DNA from: an uncultured Planctomycetia bacterium | Lineage (GTDB): Bacteria; Omnitrophota; Gorgyraeia; 2-02-FULL-51-18 | DNA length: 64,000 bases | Reading direction: 5' to 3' | Assembly (NCBI GenBank): GCA_964402785.1 | Contig: CAYODQ010000003.1 | Location: 9,034 to 73,033 of the forward strand | Shown: positions 7,034 to 58,863 of the stretch, piece by piece | Position numbering within the stretch: position 1 is the first letter of the stretch | Layout: each line of letters starts with the position of its first letter | The notes under the pieces: model-generated | Told to the model about the DNA's origin: nothing | The model's input: only the letters and a program-made list of their open reading frames with translations | Databases searched by the model: none | Program-made: the position numbers and the translations under genes

Positions 7034-8077
7034 TCAGATGGAATATGTATCGATCACAAAGCGGTAACGCACATCGCCCTTCAAGATGCGCTCGTAGGCT
7101 TCGTTCACTTTTTGGACGGGGATGACTTCCACATCGGACGTAATATTTTTACGCGCACAGTAGTTGAGCATCTCTTGTGTCTCACGAATACCGCCGATCA
7201 CAGAGCCGGCTAGCTTTTTTCGCTTGATGATCAGCGAAAAAGGATGAACCGTCGCAGGCTTATCCGGCACACCGACGATGACCATTGTGCCATCACGCTT
7301 AAGAAGCGACAACAGTAGATCCATATCATGCGTCGCTGACACCGTATCCAAAATAAAATCAAATCGTCCCGCCAAGAATTCCATCTCACCTTTATCGGTC
7401 GAAAGCACAAATCCTTTGGCGCCGAATTTGCGCGCATCTTTTTCTTTGGAGCGGTTGGTACTGATCACAGTGACAATGGCACCCATGGAAGCAGCCAACT
7501 TCACCGCCATGTGTCCCAAACCACCCATCCCCACCACCGCGATTTTCATGCCGCGTTTGACACCATAATATTTAAGCGGCGAATACGTCGTGATCCCCGC
7601 GCAAAGAAGTGGGGCTACTTTTTCGAGAGGAAGCTTTTTGGAGATCTTTAGCGCATAACTTTCTTCGACGACAATATGTGTCGAGTACCCGCCAAATGTA
7701 GGAGTGATCTTATCTTGCTCAACGCCGTTGTAAGTCCAAGTGCCCTGGCCTTCACAATAATTTTCCAGGCCTTCTTTGCAGCTGGCGCATTTACGACAAG
7801 AGTCTGTGAAACATCCGACACCAGCGTAGTCGCCGACTTTGAATTTTTTGACCTTAGCACCCACCGACTCGACTGTGCCCACGATCTCGTGTCCAGGCAC
7901 CATCGGATATTTGGAGCCGCCCCATTCGTTGCGAGCCTGATGGATATCCGAGTGACAGATGCCGCAAAAATGGATCTTGATCACGATATCTTTAGGTTTG
8001 GGCGAGCGGCGCTCAAAAGAAAACGGTTTGAGTGTGTCCTTTGCGTGATGAACAGCGTAACCTTTAACTGAGATCAT
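7034..8077 (-). CDS. Zn-dependent NAD(P)-alcohol dehydrogenase (cinnamyl-ADH/YahK-like)
   Basis: GICHSDIH...GHEIVG zinc-ADH signatures and a GXGXXG Rossmann motif ([12 protein letters not shown]). Confidence 0.85.
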
Positions 8078-8098
8078 GAATTCCCCTTGTATCGAAAT

Positions 8099-8716
8099 TT
8101 ATTTCCATTTGATCGAGCAGCCCACCGCCGGCTTTTGCTCGGCTGGCACGGGCTTGCCTTCGATCAAAGCATCCAGCACAGCGCGCACGTCTTTGCCATC
8201 GGCTTCGTTGCCGCTATTGGGACGCGAGTTATCGAATTGTCCGCGATAGACCAGCTTTTGATCTTTATCGAAAATAAAAACATCGGGCGTGGCCTTGGCC
8301 GTATAAGCTTTGGCAACCTCTTGAGACTCATCATATAAGAAAGGAAATACAAATCCCTCTTGCTGCGCCATCTCCTTCAGGCTCTCCGGAGCATCATCCG
8401 GATATTTCTCTGCATCATTGGAGCTGATCGCCACGATGGCAGCGTCTTTGTCTTTATAATCCTGTCCGATTTGTGCCAGTGCTTTCTTAATATGTTGAAC
8501 GTATGGGCAGTGGCGGCAAATAAAAACCACCATCAAAGCTTTTTTACCTTGAAAATTTTCGAGAGATACTTCTGCGTCCGTCGTAACATCCGCAAGTTTA
8601 AACGCCGGAGCCTGTGAACCTTTGGGAAGAAGGCCTTTGGCGCCTTCGGTCGTGGTGGCAGCCCAAACGGAGCTGGTGAAGCAGATCGACAATGCTAAAA
8701 GTGCTAATTTTTTCAT
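8099..8716 (-). CDS. Secreted thioredoxin-fold protein (redoxin/TlpA-like)
   Basis: Signal peptide, a CRHCP CxxC motif and a thioredoxin-like spacing. Confidence 0.7.
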   Translation of the reverse strand: MKKLALLALSICFTSSVWAATTTEGAKGLLPKGSQAPAFKLADVTTDAEVSLENFQGKKALMVVFICRHCPYVQHIKKALAQIGQDYKDKDAAIVAISSNDAEKYPDDAPESLKEMAQQEGFVFPFLYDESQEVAKAYTAKATPDVFIFDKDQKLVYRGQFDNSRPNSGNEADGKDVRAVLDALIEGKPVPAEQKPAVGCSIKWK

Positions 8717-8758
8717 TTTATCCCCCGGGAGATGCTTATCATATCAGCTTCCCGGTCC

Positions 8759-8782
8759 AAATGAAATCGGGATAGAAAATGG
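8759..8782. repeat. 24-bp direct repeat copying the 3' end of tRNA-Glu (aaatggcgaccccagcgggattcg); second copy at 9086..9109
   Basis: Exact match seen in the sequence. The copy at 9086..9109 is the true tRNA 3' end plus 3 nt of flank. Confidence 0.85.
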
Positions 8783-8966
8783 CGACCCCAGCGGGATTCG
8801 GCGCCCTGCGCTGCGCATGTCTTCACTCCCTCCGGTCGTTCAGCATTGCTCGCTCCGGGTCGGCCATTCGCCTCGGCGATGGAATTGTCGAGTGCCTTTG
8901 TGGCACTCGCCCTATATCTCAAGGGCGCCTCGGCTCTCTTCAAATCCCGCAATTGCAAAACATTCA

Positions 8967-9088
8967 TTTTTTCTGATTAGGGACTCAGATACGAGGCGCG
9001 ACGTCGGGAGCGCGGGAGGCACTATGGAATAGTGTTGACCAAGCGGTCGACGGCGCAACGAAGTAGATGAGTCCCTAATCAGAAAAAA
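8967..9088. repeat. MITE-like element: perfect 21-bp inverted arms (ttttttctgattagggactca / tgagtccctaatcagaaaaaa) around an 80-nt core, abutting the tRNA-Glu CCA end
   Basis: Arms at 8967..8987 and 9068..9088 are exact reverse complements. No ORF is supported inside. Confidence 0.7.
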
Positions 9089-9166
9089 TGGCGACCCCAG
9101 CGGGATTCGAACCCGCGTCACCACCGTGAAAGGGTGATGTCCTAGGCCAGGCTAGACGATGGGGTC
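9089..9166 (-). tRNA. tRNA-Glu (anticodon TTC)
   Basis: Minus-strand sequence GACCCCATCGTCTAGCCTGGCCTAGGACATCACCCTTTCACGGTGGTGACGCGGGTTCGAATCCCGCTGGGGTCGCCA folds as a cloverleaf. The anticodon loop CTTTCAC gives UUC. The T-loop is GGTTCGAATCC and the 3' end carries CCA. Confidence 0.85.
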
Positions 9167-9244
9167 AAGGTCGAAAAAGTTGCCTTATTCTAAACCAAAC
9201 CCCTTAATTGTCAACGGATTCCAGGTGGGCTACCACTGAGCTCT

Positions 9245-11899
9245 TTAGTACCTTATCTTAACCATCGCCGTGCCATTGTGGCCGGTGAAGTCTTCTTTGA
9301 CTTCAAAATCGTAGTTGAGATGGACTGAGACATTGCTTTGATTATAGATCTCAAGGCCCACACCAAGGTCAACGCCATGCTGGGATGGCTTAAGACCTTT
9401 GGTATCAAAGCTTGCTCCTCCGCCTTGGAAAGAGGCGGTCGTTTGGGCGCGATCTCCGACAAAGTCATAGAGGTATTTGGCATAAACGACGGGTATCAGT
9501 TTGCCCCAGTCTTGGACAGACGCCCAAGAAAACTTCGCCCCGAGGGCAGATTGCAATAAGTCATAGTTTGCTTTTTTAACGTTTAGGTTAAAAGCGCCCG
9601 CCCCATCTTCTGTATAACCCTCAATACGGGTATGAACATAATGAAGCGAAGCCGTGGGAGTACAGGTGTATCCCTCCCTCTGAGGCATGGGATAGCCAAA
9701 ACCCACAAATCCAGAGTACTGCTGACCGTCATAATCAGCTTCGGCAATGCGGGAGGTGCTTACACCGTCGAATGTGATATGTCTCACGCCTTTATATTCA
9801 TTCCAACCAAAACCAAGGGAAGTATCCATATACCAAGGCTCGGGGTTATATCGGGCATAAAGAGTGCCTTGATAGTTCTGGATGTCGGTTTGATCGTTTG
9901 AGGCGTCTGCATCCACATCAGCCACACCCCATCCTCCGGCTAACCCCATGCGGAGATTCTCTTGAGAGAGCCCATCAAAACCAAGTAGGGTTCCTGCTAC
10001 CTGAGCATCATAACCTTGGACATTTTTTCTTTTGTCTTGTTCTAAGAAACTTCCATAACCTTTGAACCAAACATAGTTTTCCTGAGGCATATCGCCGGAC
10101 GAAACACCCGTTTGGGTTGACAGCTCATCCAGATGACTATTCAAGGCATCCACCTGGCCAAGAACCATGCTTTGACCCGCTGCCACGATGCCTGAGTCGA
10201 CTTGGGGATCGAGTGACTCGACTGCCTTCTCAAGAAGGGCTGGGTTCGTGATGGCTTGTATGTTATTGATCCCAGTGGTGAGGTCTTGATTAGCGGCACC
10301 TGAACTTAAAGCTTGAAGCGCCGCATCATAAGCAGATTGTCCTGGGCCGCTTGAGCCGATTGGCACTGGGGCAATAGCGGTCAAGCGCAGATCACCCGGG
10401 GTCGGTTCGCTGATCGTGAAAGAAACCGTTGAGCTATCGTCCGTGATCGTCGGAAGACCCGTGATATTGTCTACCGTGGAGGTGACGATATCAAAGGTTT
10501 GACCGTTTGAGATAGCCCCACTCACCGTGATATGAAACGTATTGGTGGCATTGATCGTCGCGGTTCCTGTGGCGCCATCCGATAAGACCTTACCAAAAAC
10601 CGAAGCGCTATTGATAGTGAGCCTAAAGTTACCTCCCGAGGCCAAAGTAAAAATGCCTGCATTAGCCCCATTTAAATCAATGGTGTTCGCGCCAATATCG
10701 AGGGTAGATAGATTGTTGTTTTGTATTAATGCATTGGCGAATACATTTCCACCCAATGTAGCTGTTTCTGCGACACCTGAAACGTTATTAATGCCAACAG
10801 ATGTTATGTAATTGGCATTAGTTCCGATCGTGCCATTAACGGTAGATGTTCCTTGGAGATCAACTTGCCCGGCGTTAGCCACGGTAGTCGTAATAGATCC
10901 AAAAAGGGATGCATTGTCCCTTAATCTAAACGCACCATTGGACACATCAACAATTCCCGTGTTAAAAGCGCTGCTTCCAAAATTCCCAGATAAATTCAAA
11001 GTACCACTCCCCGATACTGTGAGCTGATCGGTAAAAACGGCGCCTGTGATTTCAGGACCACCCGCCAATACATTAATAGCTGCCAAGGCAGCCGATGCGC
11101 TGCCGACATTACCCGTAATGGTGGAATTGCCTCCTTCTAAGGTTAACGTGCCCGTGCTGTCGGTGTTGGTGCTGATAGCCGCTGTAATGTTTTCGTTGGC
11201 ATCCAGACTGATGGTACCGTTTCCGGCAAAGATAACGGATGTGCCCGTAATGCTATCTGAATTAATCGTGCCTGTGCCAGTCACCGTTAGTGTGTTGGCA
11301 AATACATCTCCATTAAAAGTCGAGGCCGATCCATTGGCTCCAACATTGATGGCTCCTAACCTGGATCCGGCCGCGGAGGCTCCGACATTACCGGATATCG
11401 TGGAAGATCCTTGAAGAGTCAATGTTCCAGTGTTTGAAACCGAAGTATTCGAGATAGAGGTGGCGGCCGTTGTTGTGATATTAGCGCCTGATTCAAGGAT
11501 TAGGCTTTGATTTGCTGATTTGAATTCAAAGTCTCCATCCAGGAAGGCGTTGGCGCTCAAGGTAAGATCAGTGCCTGAAATCGTAATATCCACATCATTG
11601 ATACTGTCCGCGGCGGCTGTGCCGATGGTACCAGAGATATCGCTATCCACAATGACCAATATTTTTCCAAAGTTATTGGTGCCAGGGTTAAAAGAGACCC
11701 CCGCCGTATTCCCTATAGAGGCGTCATCATCAATAATAAGAGTATTGTTGGTGGTAAAAAGCACACCTTCGGCTACGCAGCTGGCCCCGCAGGCGGCATC
11801 GACACCATTCACGTCCTGAGGAGCGGCCAGTAAAACGGATGATGATAGAAGCTGAAAGGCGAATAAAATCGATAGAGAAAAATAAATTTTTTTGTGCAT
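9245..11899 (-). CDS. Autotransporter (type Va): signal peptide, repetitive beta-helical passenger, C-terminal 12-strand beta-barrel
   Basis: 884 aa. The passenger is rich in T/S/G/N repeats (GTLTLQG, ITGNVG). The C-terminus ...HLNYDFEVKEDFTGHNGTAMVKIRY ends on an aromatic residue, as outer-membrane barrels do. Confidence 0.8.
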   Translation of the reverse strand: MHKKIYFSLSILFAFQLLSSSVLLAAPQDVNGVDAACGASCVAEGVLFTTNNTLIIDDDASIGNTAGVSFNPGTNNFGKILVIVDSDISGTIGTAAADSINDVDITISGTDLTLSANAFLDGDFEFKSANQSLILESGANITTTAATSISNTSVSNTGTLTLQGSSTISGNVGASAAGSRLGAINVGANGSASTFNGDVFANTLTVTGTGTINSDSITGTSVIFAGNGTISLDANENITAAISTNTDSTGTLTLEGGNSTITGNVGSASAALAAINVLAGGPEITGAVFTDQLTVSGSGTLNLSGNFGSSAFNTGIVDVSNGAFRLRDNASLFGSITTTVANAGQVDLQGTSTVNGTIGTNANYITSVGINNVSGVAETATLGGNVFANALIQNNNLSTLDIGANTIDLNGANAGIFTLASGGNFRLTINSASVFGKVLSDGATGTATINATNTFHITVSGAISNGQTFDIVTSTVDNITGLPTITDDSSTVSFTISEPTPGDLRLTAIAPVPIGSSGPGQSAYDAALQALSSGAANQDLTTGINNIQAITNPALLEKAVESLDPQVDSGIVAAGQSMVLGQVDALNSHLDELSTQTGVSSGDMPQENYVWFKGYGSFLEQDKRKNVQGYDAQVAGTLLGFDGLSQENLRMGLAGGWGVADVDADASNDQTDIQNYQGTLYARYNPEPWYMDTSLGFGWNEYKGVRHITFDGVSTSRIAEADYDGQQYSGFVGFGYPMPQREGYTCTPTASLHYVHTRIEGYTEDGAGAFNLNVKKANYDLLQSALGAKFSWASVQDWGKLIPVVYAKYLYDFVGDRAQTTASFQGGGASFDTKGLKPSQHGVDLGVGLEIYNQSNVSVHLNYDFEVKEDFTGHNGTAMVKIRY

Positions 11900-17823: not shown

Positions 17824-18438
17824 TTACCCTTCGATGACGAATTTTTTGCGGTTGTAGTCCATGCGGGTGTTGTATCGCCCCAAAAAGGACATACCGAGAA
17901 GGCCGTCTTTATAGCTCGCTTCGTTGGGCGGGTCTTGCAAAAGGATCAAAGTTTCCACGTCCTTAGCTTCGATATGTTGCAGCTTCAGGCTCTTTAGCTT
18001 CGTATAAAAAGCAGGCACCGAGCTTCCGTCGGCGATCTGGACTTTGGTCTGATAATGAGGATCCGTGGTATCGATCCCGAGTTGATCCCCCATTTTTTTA
18101 GAGAGCATGCAAATGGACGCTCCCGTATCCACCAAAAGCGTAGCGGGAGTCTGTCCGTTTATGACACAGTCCGCCAACATTTGATTGTGGCCATCCACAA
18201 AGTTGATCGGGATCTCTGACGGGTCGGATTTTTTGACACGCAAGACACCGGATTTATCGATCGTCATCGTACCGCCGGTTGGAAAAGCGATCTCTAATTT
18301 GCCATCTTCGTCACTGACGATGCGGCCTTCCATTTTACGGCCATTGCTAAGATAGATCTGATCTGCCGAGGCAAAAGGGGTGATCTCCAGTGAGAGTAGC
18401 ATCATACAAATGAATAGAGAGCTCATATTCTTGAACAT
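17824..18438 (-). CDS. Secreted retropepsin-like (clan AA) aspartic protease
   Basis: Signal peptide and an LLVDTGAS active-site motif. Confidence 0.65.
   Translation of the reverse strand: MFKNMSSLFICMMLLSLEITPFASADQIYLSNGRKMEGRIVSDEDGKLEIAFPTGGTMTIDKSGVLRVKKSDPSEIPINFVDGHNQMLADCVINGQTPATLLVDTGASICMLSKKMGDQLGIDTTDPHYQTKVQIADGSSVPAFYTKLKSLKLQHIEAKDVETLILLQDPPNEASYKDGLLGMSFLGRYNTRMDYNRKKFVIEG

Positions 18439-56032: not shown

Positions 56033-58863
<2,831 letters not shown>

Follow-up and report, generated by a model that had tools for sequence, protein, structure and literature searches.

The tRNA-Glu locus

The window, i.e., the whole stretch of 64,000 nucleotides analyzed here (contig CAYODQ010000003.1 of an uncultured bacterium of the Omnitrophota), contains a single tRNA gene, a tRNA-Glu(UUC) located on the minus strand at 9089..9166. 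This gene encodes its CCA end and is recognized by ARAGORN as well as by the Rfam tRNA model (57.6 bits). A promoter-like site (TTGACA, 16 nt, TAGAAT), near the consensus with 11/12 matches, precedes it at 9187..9214 on the same strand. The subject of this work is the segment that follows the gene at 8776-9084: a 309-bp insert consisting of a hairpin, a 12-nt linker, a structured unit that recurs behind tRNA genes on other contigs, and a second copy of the tRNA 3' end.

The last 21 nt of the tRNA, including CCA, together with TTTT form an exact 25-nt repeat, which occurs twice in the 64 kb and zero times in shuffled sequences. The repeat search places the tRNA-proximal copy, the counterpart of an attL site, at 9085-9109 and the distal copy (CGAATCCCGCTGGGGTCGCCATTTT), the counterpart of attR, at 8776..8800, both on the minus strand. 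The initial annotation, a first reading of the same DNA, had noticed the recurrence; the repeat is real and exact, but its length is 25 rather than 24 nt, and the start-to-start spacing is 309 rather than 304. A tRNA 3' end repeated in direct orientation is the classic signature of att sites, and the two copies bear out the earlier reading of an att-like trace of insertion at the tRNA. The remark that the interval is too short for an integrase holds as well. The 284 bp separating the two tRNA ends consist of the hairpin and the conserved unit, and no conserved open reading frame (ORF) was found in the interval.

Anatomy and fold of the structured unit

The conserved unit (~163 nt) lies at 8790..8952 on the minus strand and is matched with 117.1 bits (E = 1e-28) by R1, a covariance model of the unit family built in the present analysis. 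Read on the tRNA strand, the family has one layout: an intact tRNA, an A/T-rich spacer, a unit of ~130-165 nt and a copy of the tRNA 3' end. The closing helix, P1, surrounds two branches, namely the P2 domain and P3, the latter enclosing the P4 hairpin, and the fold includes a three-way junction core.

The 5' strand of P1 is the complement of the T loop and of the T-stem 3' strand, and it varies with the identity of the tRNA. At the start of each unit stands a 5' strand resembling that of a T stem, and after it comes ATTCGAA; together they pair with the CGAAT and the T-stem of the tail. In the window, this strand (GCGGGATTTG, T-stem-like, then the T-loop complement) lies at 8941..8950 on the minus strand. 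Behind a tRNA-Val with the T loop TTCAATT, P1 reads GGAATTG/CAATTCC, and behind tRNA-Thr, it reads AGAGGCT/AGCCTCT. The unit of the window and those of the metagenome-scan members described below end with ...AGGGCGCC, followed by GAAT and the T-stem 3' strand and acceptor 3' strand of the resident tRNA (in short, ...GGGCGCC, GAAT, tRNA end), the tail copy starting at the CGAAT of the T loop. Within the distal copy of the window, 8791-8800 form the 3' strand of P1, and the remainder is a mostly unpaired tail. In the family, pairing seldom reaches the acceptor strand, and most of the tail is therefore single-stranded. A minihelix resembling a tRNA, with its acceptor stem paired, was considered and rejected, as most members are unpaired beyond the T stem.

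The P3 helix (GGCcGaCCC/GGGcGCC) is the invariant helix of the branches (GGCCGACCC/GGGCGCC), while the other hairpins are variable and covary. Its 5' strand, the core GGCCGACCCGG, is located at 8855..8865 on the minus strand and pairs with GGGCGCC at 8800-8806. P3 is also unvaried in the copies found by R1 alone. A variable hairpin belongs to the P2 domain, which is formed in the window by GCCGAGGCG/CGCCGAGGC, with tandem G-A pairs.

Covariation was assessed in 15 sequences: 91% of the cells are paired, and changes on both sides occur in 10/23 pairs. None of 500 shuffles attained this level, and partners slid out of register pair in only 34-46%. For a short subtype (11 sequences), the 41 pairs are 90% paired, with double changes in 12 of them, and the P2a hairpin is paired throughout (100%). 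Conservation of the fold by selection is the best-supported conclusion. Folding models further indicate that the tRNA-sense strand is likely the working strand, as it folds better than its complement in 15/17 members, by 6.7 kcal/mol on average.

When Rfam 15 was searched at the gathering thresholds and at E<=10 with the region, 20 loci and the unit alone, only tRNA and tmRNA were matched, and no family matched the unit at E<=10. ARAGORN and Rfam were likewise negative for a tmRNA or permuted tmRNA, and this identity was rejected. No reading frame or start codon conserved among the units would encode a small protein like Tpr of Escherichia coli.

Distribution behind tRNA and tmRNA genes

A metagenome scan with two strings conserved among three copies of the unit returned 24 loci (loci are designated by L numbers). 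Full-model R1 matches of 95.7-135.5 bits were obtained for 13 of them; the other 11 are GC-rich coding regions with at most 18.4 bits or no match. Copies lacking the exact strings were found by R1 only: after tRNA-Val in L027 and after tRNA-Thr in L013 and L024.

Wherever the contig coverage permits, the unit lies downstream of a tRNA or tmRNA, always on the strand of the tRNA. The upstream genes are those of tRNA-Tyr, Thr, Arg(CCG), Val, Gln, Pro(GGG) and Glu, and one tmRNA. The gap between tRNA and unit amounts to 11-29 nt and reaches 56 nt in L023, whose tmRNA is followed by a terminator. It is 136-138 nt in the window and for the tRNA-proximal unit of its relative L004, because of the hairpin, and the second unit of L004 lies 429 nt downstream. 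In the window and in the scan members, the tail copies 18-25 nt up to the tRNA end, starting at CGAAT (CAATT in the Val case). The two units of L004 are the exception: they carry a tRNA 3'-end fragment that is inverted and on the 5' side. Two tRNA types can be followed by units on one contig, as seen for Thr and Tyr in L013 and for Arg and Val in L027.

Tandem arrays with a period of 150 nt are present in L027 (1939-2015) and L022 (1696-1915). The second copy in L027 stops after the 5' strand of P2a and continues as unrelated A/T-rich DNA. In L017 (5800-6037), a unit with a tail of the tRNA-Tyr type stands just upstream of tRNA-Gly. ARAGORN predicts no tRNA-Tyr there, and the unit is preceded only by ...GTGCCCA and odd remnants (GGGCGGCGGTTCGAATTGG), which looks like a deletion of the tRNA body. 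Hairpins resembling intrinsic terminators flank the unit behind the tmRNA in L023 (3183-3238 and 3400-3450); two terminators would be expected if the insert carried its own and displaced the native one. In L037, a run of N falls within the unit (1540-1560 of the European Nucleotide Archive scaffold), and the contigs of L003 and L001 end at or near the element, which suggests that assemblers break or leave gaps at these repeats.

The window belongs to the Omnitrophota according to its GyrB (56033-58564), 75-78% identical to proteins of named metagenome-assembled genomes (MAGs) of this group, and the same membership follows for L016 from a dihydroorotase 88% identical to named MAG proteins. The GC content of L010 and L019 is 66-69%, compared to 42-52% for the other loci. 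By blastn, the window interval and a short-type unit showed no similarity to entries of INPHARED or PLSDB, and the unit was not found in phages, plasmids or viral contigs. No recombinase gene stands beside the copies for which gene calls or Pfam scans exist. Literature searches gave no description of such a family, beyond mentions of RtT and the concept of the cis-mobilizable element (CIME).

Filled and empty sites

Evidence for insertion comes from the pyrC-tRNA-Arg locus of Omnitrophota, where the site is empty in L038, L039 and L040, holds a single unit in L016, L031, L036 and L037, and a tandem in L027. A tandem pair of the Arg-type unit is also present in L022, a 1.9-kb contig that stops short of pyrC and the tRNA. 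The flank TTTTAGAAAG..ATG follows the tRNA in the empty site of L039 and the unit tail in the filled site of L036; in the former, the tRNA is succeeded by ...TTTTAGAAAGTAGATATG of the next gene. At this locus, the family thus shows the presence/absence polymorphism expected of a mobile insert.

The exchange of tRNA ends can be followed in L031. Here, the 5' acceptor strand of tRNA-Arg(CCG) (243-316) is GCGCCTA, and the 3' strand is CGGGCGC, of the L027 type, which leaves one wobble and one mismatch; this tRNA may be impaired. The tail of the unit (440-470) contains TAGGCGC, a perfect match to the 5' acceptor strand of the tRNA. Such a hybrid is the pattern expected if an incoming copy gave the tRNA a new 3' end and displaced the native one. 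Furthermore, the tRNA-Thr and tRNA-Tyr genes of L013 do not encode CCA and their tails do, and CCA is encoded in a tRNA-Thr of L025 that has no unit.

The spacer hairpin and relatives of the window locus

The hairpin between tRNA-Glu and the unit is the sole extra piece of the window in comparison with the 11-56-nt spacers of the other members. It was described earlier as a 122-bp inverted-repeat element with perfect 21-bp arms abutting the CCA end; the element is real, but inverted-repeat search and folding give 126 nt (8965..9090), with 23 perfect bp at the base. The arms (8965-8992 and 9063-9090) are 28 nt long and 93% identical, and their perfect 23 nt take in the CA of the CCA end. A 21-mer of the arm occurs at these two places only in the window, versus an expectation of 0.01. 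The plus strand, antisense to the tRNA, folds better than the minus strand (-72.2 vs. -61.0 kcal/mol), and the hairpin could be a separate antisense RNA or a structure at the DNA level.

Two relatives, L003 and L004, were retrieved by using the redoxin gene next to the insert as an anchor, at 75% protein identity. In both, the promoter elements are recognizable (TGACAAT...TAGAAT), and tRNA-Glu is directly followed by a homologous hairpin, at the identical position. Its arms read TTTTTTCCTATTATCGGCTCA in the relatives and TTTTTTCTGATTAGGGACTCA in the window; all six differing positions are compensated, both arms having changed together. The interior motifs CTCAGATACGAGGCGCG and GCAACGAAGTAG are kept in both relatives, and the interior stems of the window and L004 have the same shape with different sequences.

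The initial annotation regarded the hairpin as a miniature inverted-repeat transposable element (MITE). The terminal inverted repeats (23 perfect bp) and the lack of an ORF are MITE-like. MITEs differ, however, in that this hairpin is orthologous in the relatives, with compensated arm changes, and has no second copy in the scans. A 19-mer of the arm gave one chance match, in a hemN gene of Pseudoalteromonas, among 185,579 GTDB species-representative genomes, and the window, those genomes and viral contigs yielded no further copy of the arm. The pattern of the hairpin interior gave 0 hits in the IMG/VR viral contigs, and nhmmer profiles of the hairpin detected no further copy in the window or in seven loci. 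A target-site duplication is also absent, the flanks ...AACATT and GCGACC... being unrepeated. The MITE was rejected on these grounds.

Past the hairpin, L004 contains two copies of a ~165-nt segment homologous to 8790-8952 of the window. In these units (329-813), the inverted fragment of the tRNA-Glu 3' end (CGACCCCA+GCGGG) is located 5', and the tail is without it; these inverted fragments indicate that the locus was repeatedly rearranged. Moreover, with respect to the redoxin gene, the tRNA-hairpin-unit block has opposite orientations in the window (8716-9214) and in L003/L004, with the breakpoint at the tRNA promoter, between TGACAAT (the -35 element of the tRNA) and ATCCCGATTTC.

Neighboring features

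The neighboring genes are those for redoxin, alcohol dehydrogenase, pyruvate kinase, an autotransporter and an AraC regulator. In the window, the redoxin/AhpC-TSA gene used as the anchor (8099..8716, minus strand) lies directly downstream of the tail and outside the element. The autotransporter and AraC genes had been proposed as surviving cargo. They are located beyond the repeats, on the 5' (promoter) side of the tRNA, a position at odds with this idea.

The D-arm-like string GGTACTAAAGAGCTCAGTGGTAGCCC (9227..9252, minus strand), recognized by sequence match only, is equally outside the element. It contains an exact 13-mer, AGCTCAGTGGTAG, typical of tRNA D arms, just past the stop codon of the autotransporter gene and beside the start of the homology with L004. 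The proposal that this string is the 5' half of a tRNA found no support: it is too short, nothing but the common 13-mer is exact, no tRNA model matches it at E<=10, the region does not fold better than its shuffles (z = 0.24), and neither a D-stem partner nor a T arm follows. Elsewhere in the window, a 204-aa ORF (17824-18438, minus strand) matches the retropepsin-like aspartyl protease domains PF13975 and PF13650. Several close homologues of GyrB are ~1,020-1,290 aa long and contain the intein domain PF14890; the GyrB of the window has no intein.

Origin of the insert

Taken together, 8776-9084 is probably one copy of a family of small gene-less inserts at the 3' ends of tRNA and tmRNA genes, polymorphic in its presence and probably moved in trans. 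Entry would occur by recombination between the tRNA gene and the insert's own copy of the segment from the T loop to the 3' end; the insert would rebuild the tRNA and displace the native end. Since the insert encodes nothing, the recombinase would have to be supplied in trans. The T loop being common to tRNAs, a copy might occasionally be retargeted: the new tRNA would automatically provide the displaced tail, and compensation could then adapt the 5' strand of P1. For the window, this mechanism predicts GGTTCGAATCCCGCTGGGGTCGCCATTTT/CTATCCCGATTTC as the junction of an empty site and GGGCGCCGAATCCCGCTGGGGTCGCCATTTT/TTCTGATTAGGG as that of a circle or tandem. By analogy with the rtT RNA of E. 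coli, the unit is probably transcribed as a 3' trailer of the tRNA, and its fold could act either as RNA or as folded single-stranded DNA during recombination. It is tempting to go further, although more tentatively, and to see here an undescribed class of integrating cassettes, defined by structure and devoid of genes, with the T loop of tRNA and tmRNA genes as their target. Their conserved three-way-junction core, acting as folded DNA or as RNA, would serve for recognition or guidance of a recombinase that acts in trans. Retargeting would be nearly free, since the displaced tRNA end is taken into the element, and the tyrT/rtT repeats of E. coli would be decayed members of the class.

Several points weigh against insertion as outlined here. 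Precise deletion between direct repeats, rather than an ancestral state, could account for the empty sites at the Arg locus. Only two neighboring bases define the hybrid tRNA of L031, whose spacer belongs to the L016 type, which leaves gene conversion as an alternative. Comparison of the relatives gave no empty site for tRNA-Glu, with empty sites seen at pyrC-tRNA-Arg instead; L003 ends within the hairpin, and the redoxin homologues P0007, P0013, P0014 and P0015 have no tRNA-Glu nearby. No recombinase was identified beside the copies, and no excised or circular form was seen. Regarding the fold, the invariance of P3 is partly a product of the search strings, and a ratio of only 6 G-U to 3 A-C pairs in the internal helices leaves its strand unsettled. 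Finally, the host range is verified for Omnitrophota only, the other hosts being judged from GC content alone.

The most serious alternative, which we nevertheless consider rather unlikely, is a host-encoded trailer RNA like rtT, inherited vertically, whose spread to further tRNA genes and changes in copy number would be due to ordinary homologous recombination and duplication inside tRNA operons, without any dedicated integration. The covariation of several helices, the better folding of the tRNA-sense strand and the tRNA promoter upstream are all in line with an RNA, a small RNA with the same layout exists in E. coli, and tandem arrays can be made by unequal crossing-over. On the contrary, tails and P1 helices that match eight tRNA/tmRNA types call for repeated, precise joining at the same position of the T loop. 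The hybrid tRNA of L031 and the CCA-containing tails beside CCA-less tRNA genes look like exchange, and in L023, a terminator stands between tmRNA and unit.

A second alternative is a recombination site of folded single-stranded DNA, like attC or the attP of phage CTX, in which P1 would rebuild, out of a single strand, the T loop and T stem in double-stranded form for exchange by a tyrosine recombinase and the spacers would be tiny cassettes. Structure is indeed more conserved than sequence in the hairpins of the unit, P1 is the exact complement of the target segment and changes with the target, and past P1 the tail is host-like and for the most part unpaired. Arrays of 150-nt units in tandem, without an ORF, would fit as well, and the G-U counts give no clear RNA-strand signal. 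Nevertheless, this explanation is improbable, as the neighborhood of the copies showed no recombinase gene, whether of the integron type or another, the invariant 11-nt core and the tandem G-A motifs are just as typical of RNA, and the E. coli analogue is a stable RNA.

Least credible of all is the scenario in which a larger, integrase-bearing island decayed or was excised, leaving a scar, and a MITE then inserted beside the CCA end: the direct repeats of the tRNA 3' end, the long perfect inverted arms and the absence of the hairpin from the 11-56-nt spacers of other members speak in its favor, but the interval is fully explained by the hairpin and a 117-bit unit, this unit stands directly behind other tRNAs without an island, phage or plasmid similarity is lacking, further copies of the arm are missing from the window, the GTDB representatives and IMG/VR, and L003 and L004 have the hairpin at the identical place, with compensated arms. 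Since the ~163-nt unit recurs behind at least eight kinds of tRNA and tmRNA, it does not represent the remains of a larger island, and the island scar with a MITE, as first annotated, is largely wrong.

Partial duplications of tRNA genes are routinely read as island scars; in the present case, such a scar marks the border of a compact, conserved, structured element, which would have colonized many tRNA genes without encoding anything. Pairs of tRNA fragments without an integrase are a warning for island-finding pipelines. If the family of gene-less inserts is mobile, it offers a minimal system for asking how structure alone specifies site-specific insertion and the switching of targets. If it is chiefly an RNA, the rtT type of trailer RNA widens from one enterobacterial operon to many uncultured bacteria, and the covariation needed for the study of trailer RNAs is supplied. 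Either reading provides a route into the function of rtT.

Comparison with known systems

Integron attC sites and the folded attP of phage CTX share with the present family imperfect palindromes, a conservation of structure over sequence and arrays of short units, and their hairpins rebuild a recombination site, as is proposed here for P1. The target, on the contrary, is the T arm of a tRNA, and the unit contains a three-way junction and an internal core that does not vary. These systems are defined by IntI or Xer enzymes, none of which was found here.

Islands and prophages at tRNA and tmRNA genes, with the att sites of tyrosine integrases, likewise have repeats of the tRNA 3' end that start in the T loop. 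There, the insert rebuilds the tRNA and displaces the native end, and the present family provides one hybrid, attL-like tRNA (L031). The insert differs in its size (150-310 bp), in the lack of an integrase or any other gene, and in a conserved structure in place of variable cargo. Of an island remnant, the window has the 25-nt direct repeats, without remains of an integrase or of island genes.

CIMEs are att-flanked remnants of integrative and conjugative or integrative and mobilizable elements (ICEs or IMEs) without integration genes that can be mobilized in cis (PMC5704250). The insert resembles them in its attL/attR-like flanks and in having no recombination genes, so that it would have to be mobilized in trans. 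A CIME is the decay product of a particular ICE, whereas the insert is a covarying fold found across many tRNA targets; it has the att-like repeats and no genes, with no trace of a descent from an ICE or IME.

The closest parallel in design is RtT of E. coli (RF00391; genes rttR and tpr; the 178-bp repeats of tyrT). It is placed directly 3' of a tRNA on the same strand: rttR behind tyrV in E. coli, and the unit at 8790-8952(-) behind tRNA-Glu at 9089-9166(-) in the window. Three 178-bp units follow tyrV, starting with GGGGAAGGATGAGAAG, which is T-stem-like, and ending with AATCCTTCCCCCACCACCA, the tRNA 3' end, and the Rfam consensus has a closing helix of the same kind as P1. The tyrT repeats also stand in tandem (1-10 copies among 4,738 E. 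coli genomes), and annotations give rtT as a small RNA that is processed out of the tyrT transcript. The string GAAGGATGAGAA is common to the tRNA-Tyr-linked loci L013 and L025 and the E. coli repeats. The interior of RtT is different, the P2 domain being absent and 18 extra nt preceding the tail.

Homology to RtT did not reach significance by covariance model or nhmmer. RF00391 (gathering threshold, 45 bits), with which the E. coli repeats score 134-137 bits, matched neither 7500-10500 of the window (E<=10), nor L016, L019 and L027 (E<=1), nor the unit of L016 (E<=10). Conversely, R1 with filters off gave 7.3 bits (E = 0.05) on the E. coli repeats, in P1 only, and the unit family gave E = 0.12 with nhmmer. 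To our knowledge, RtT has been described only in enterobacteria and only behind tRNA-Tyr, whereas the present family follows at least eight tRNA/tmRNA types. We also know of no explanation of the function of rtT, and the tyrT/rtT repeats of E. coli have been without one for 45 years. In its position, tail and closing helix, the unit of the window is an RtT-like design, realized in a sequence family outside Rfam 15.

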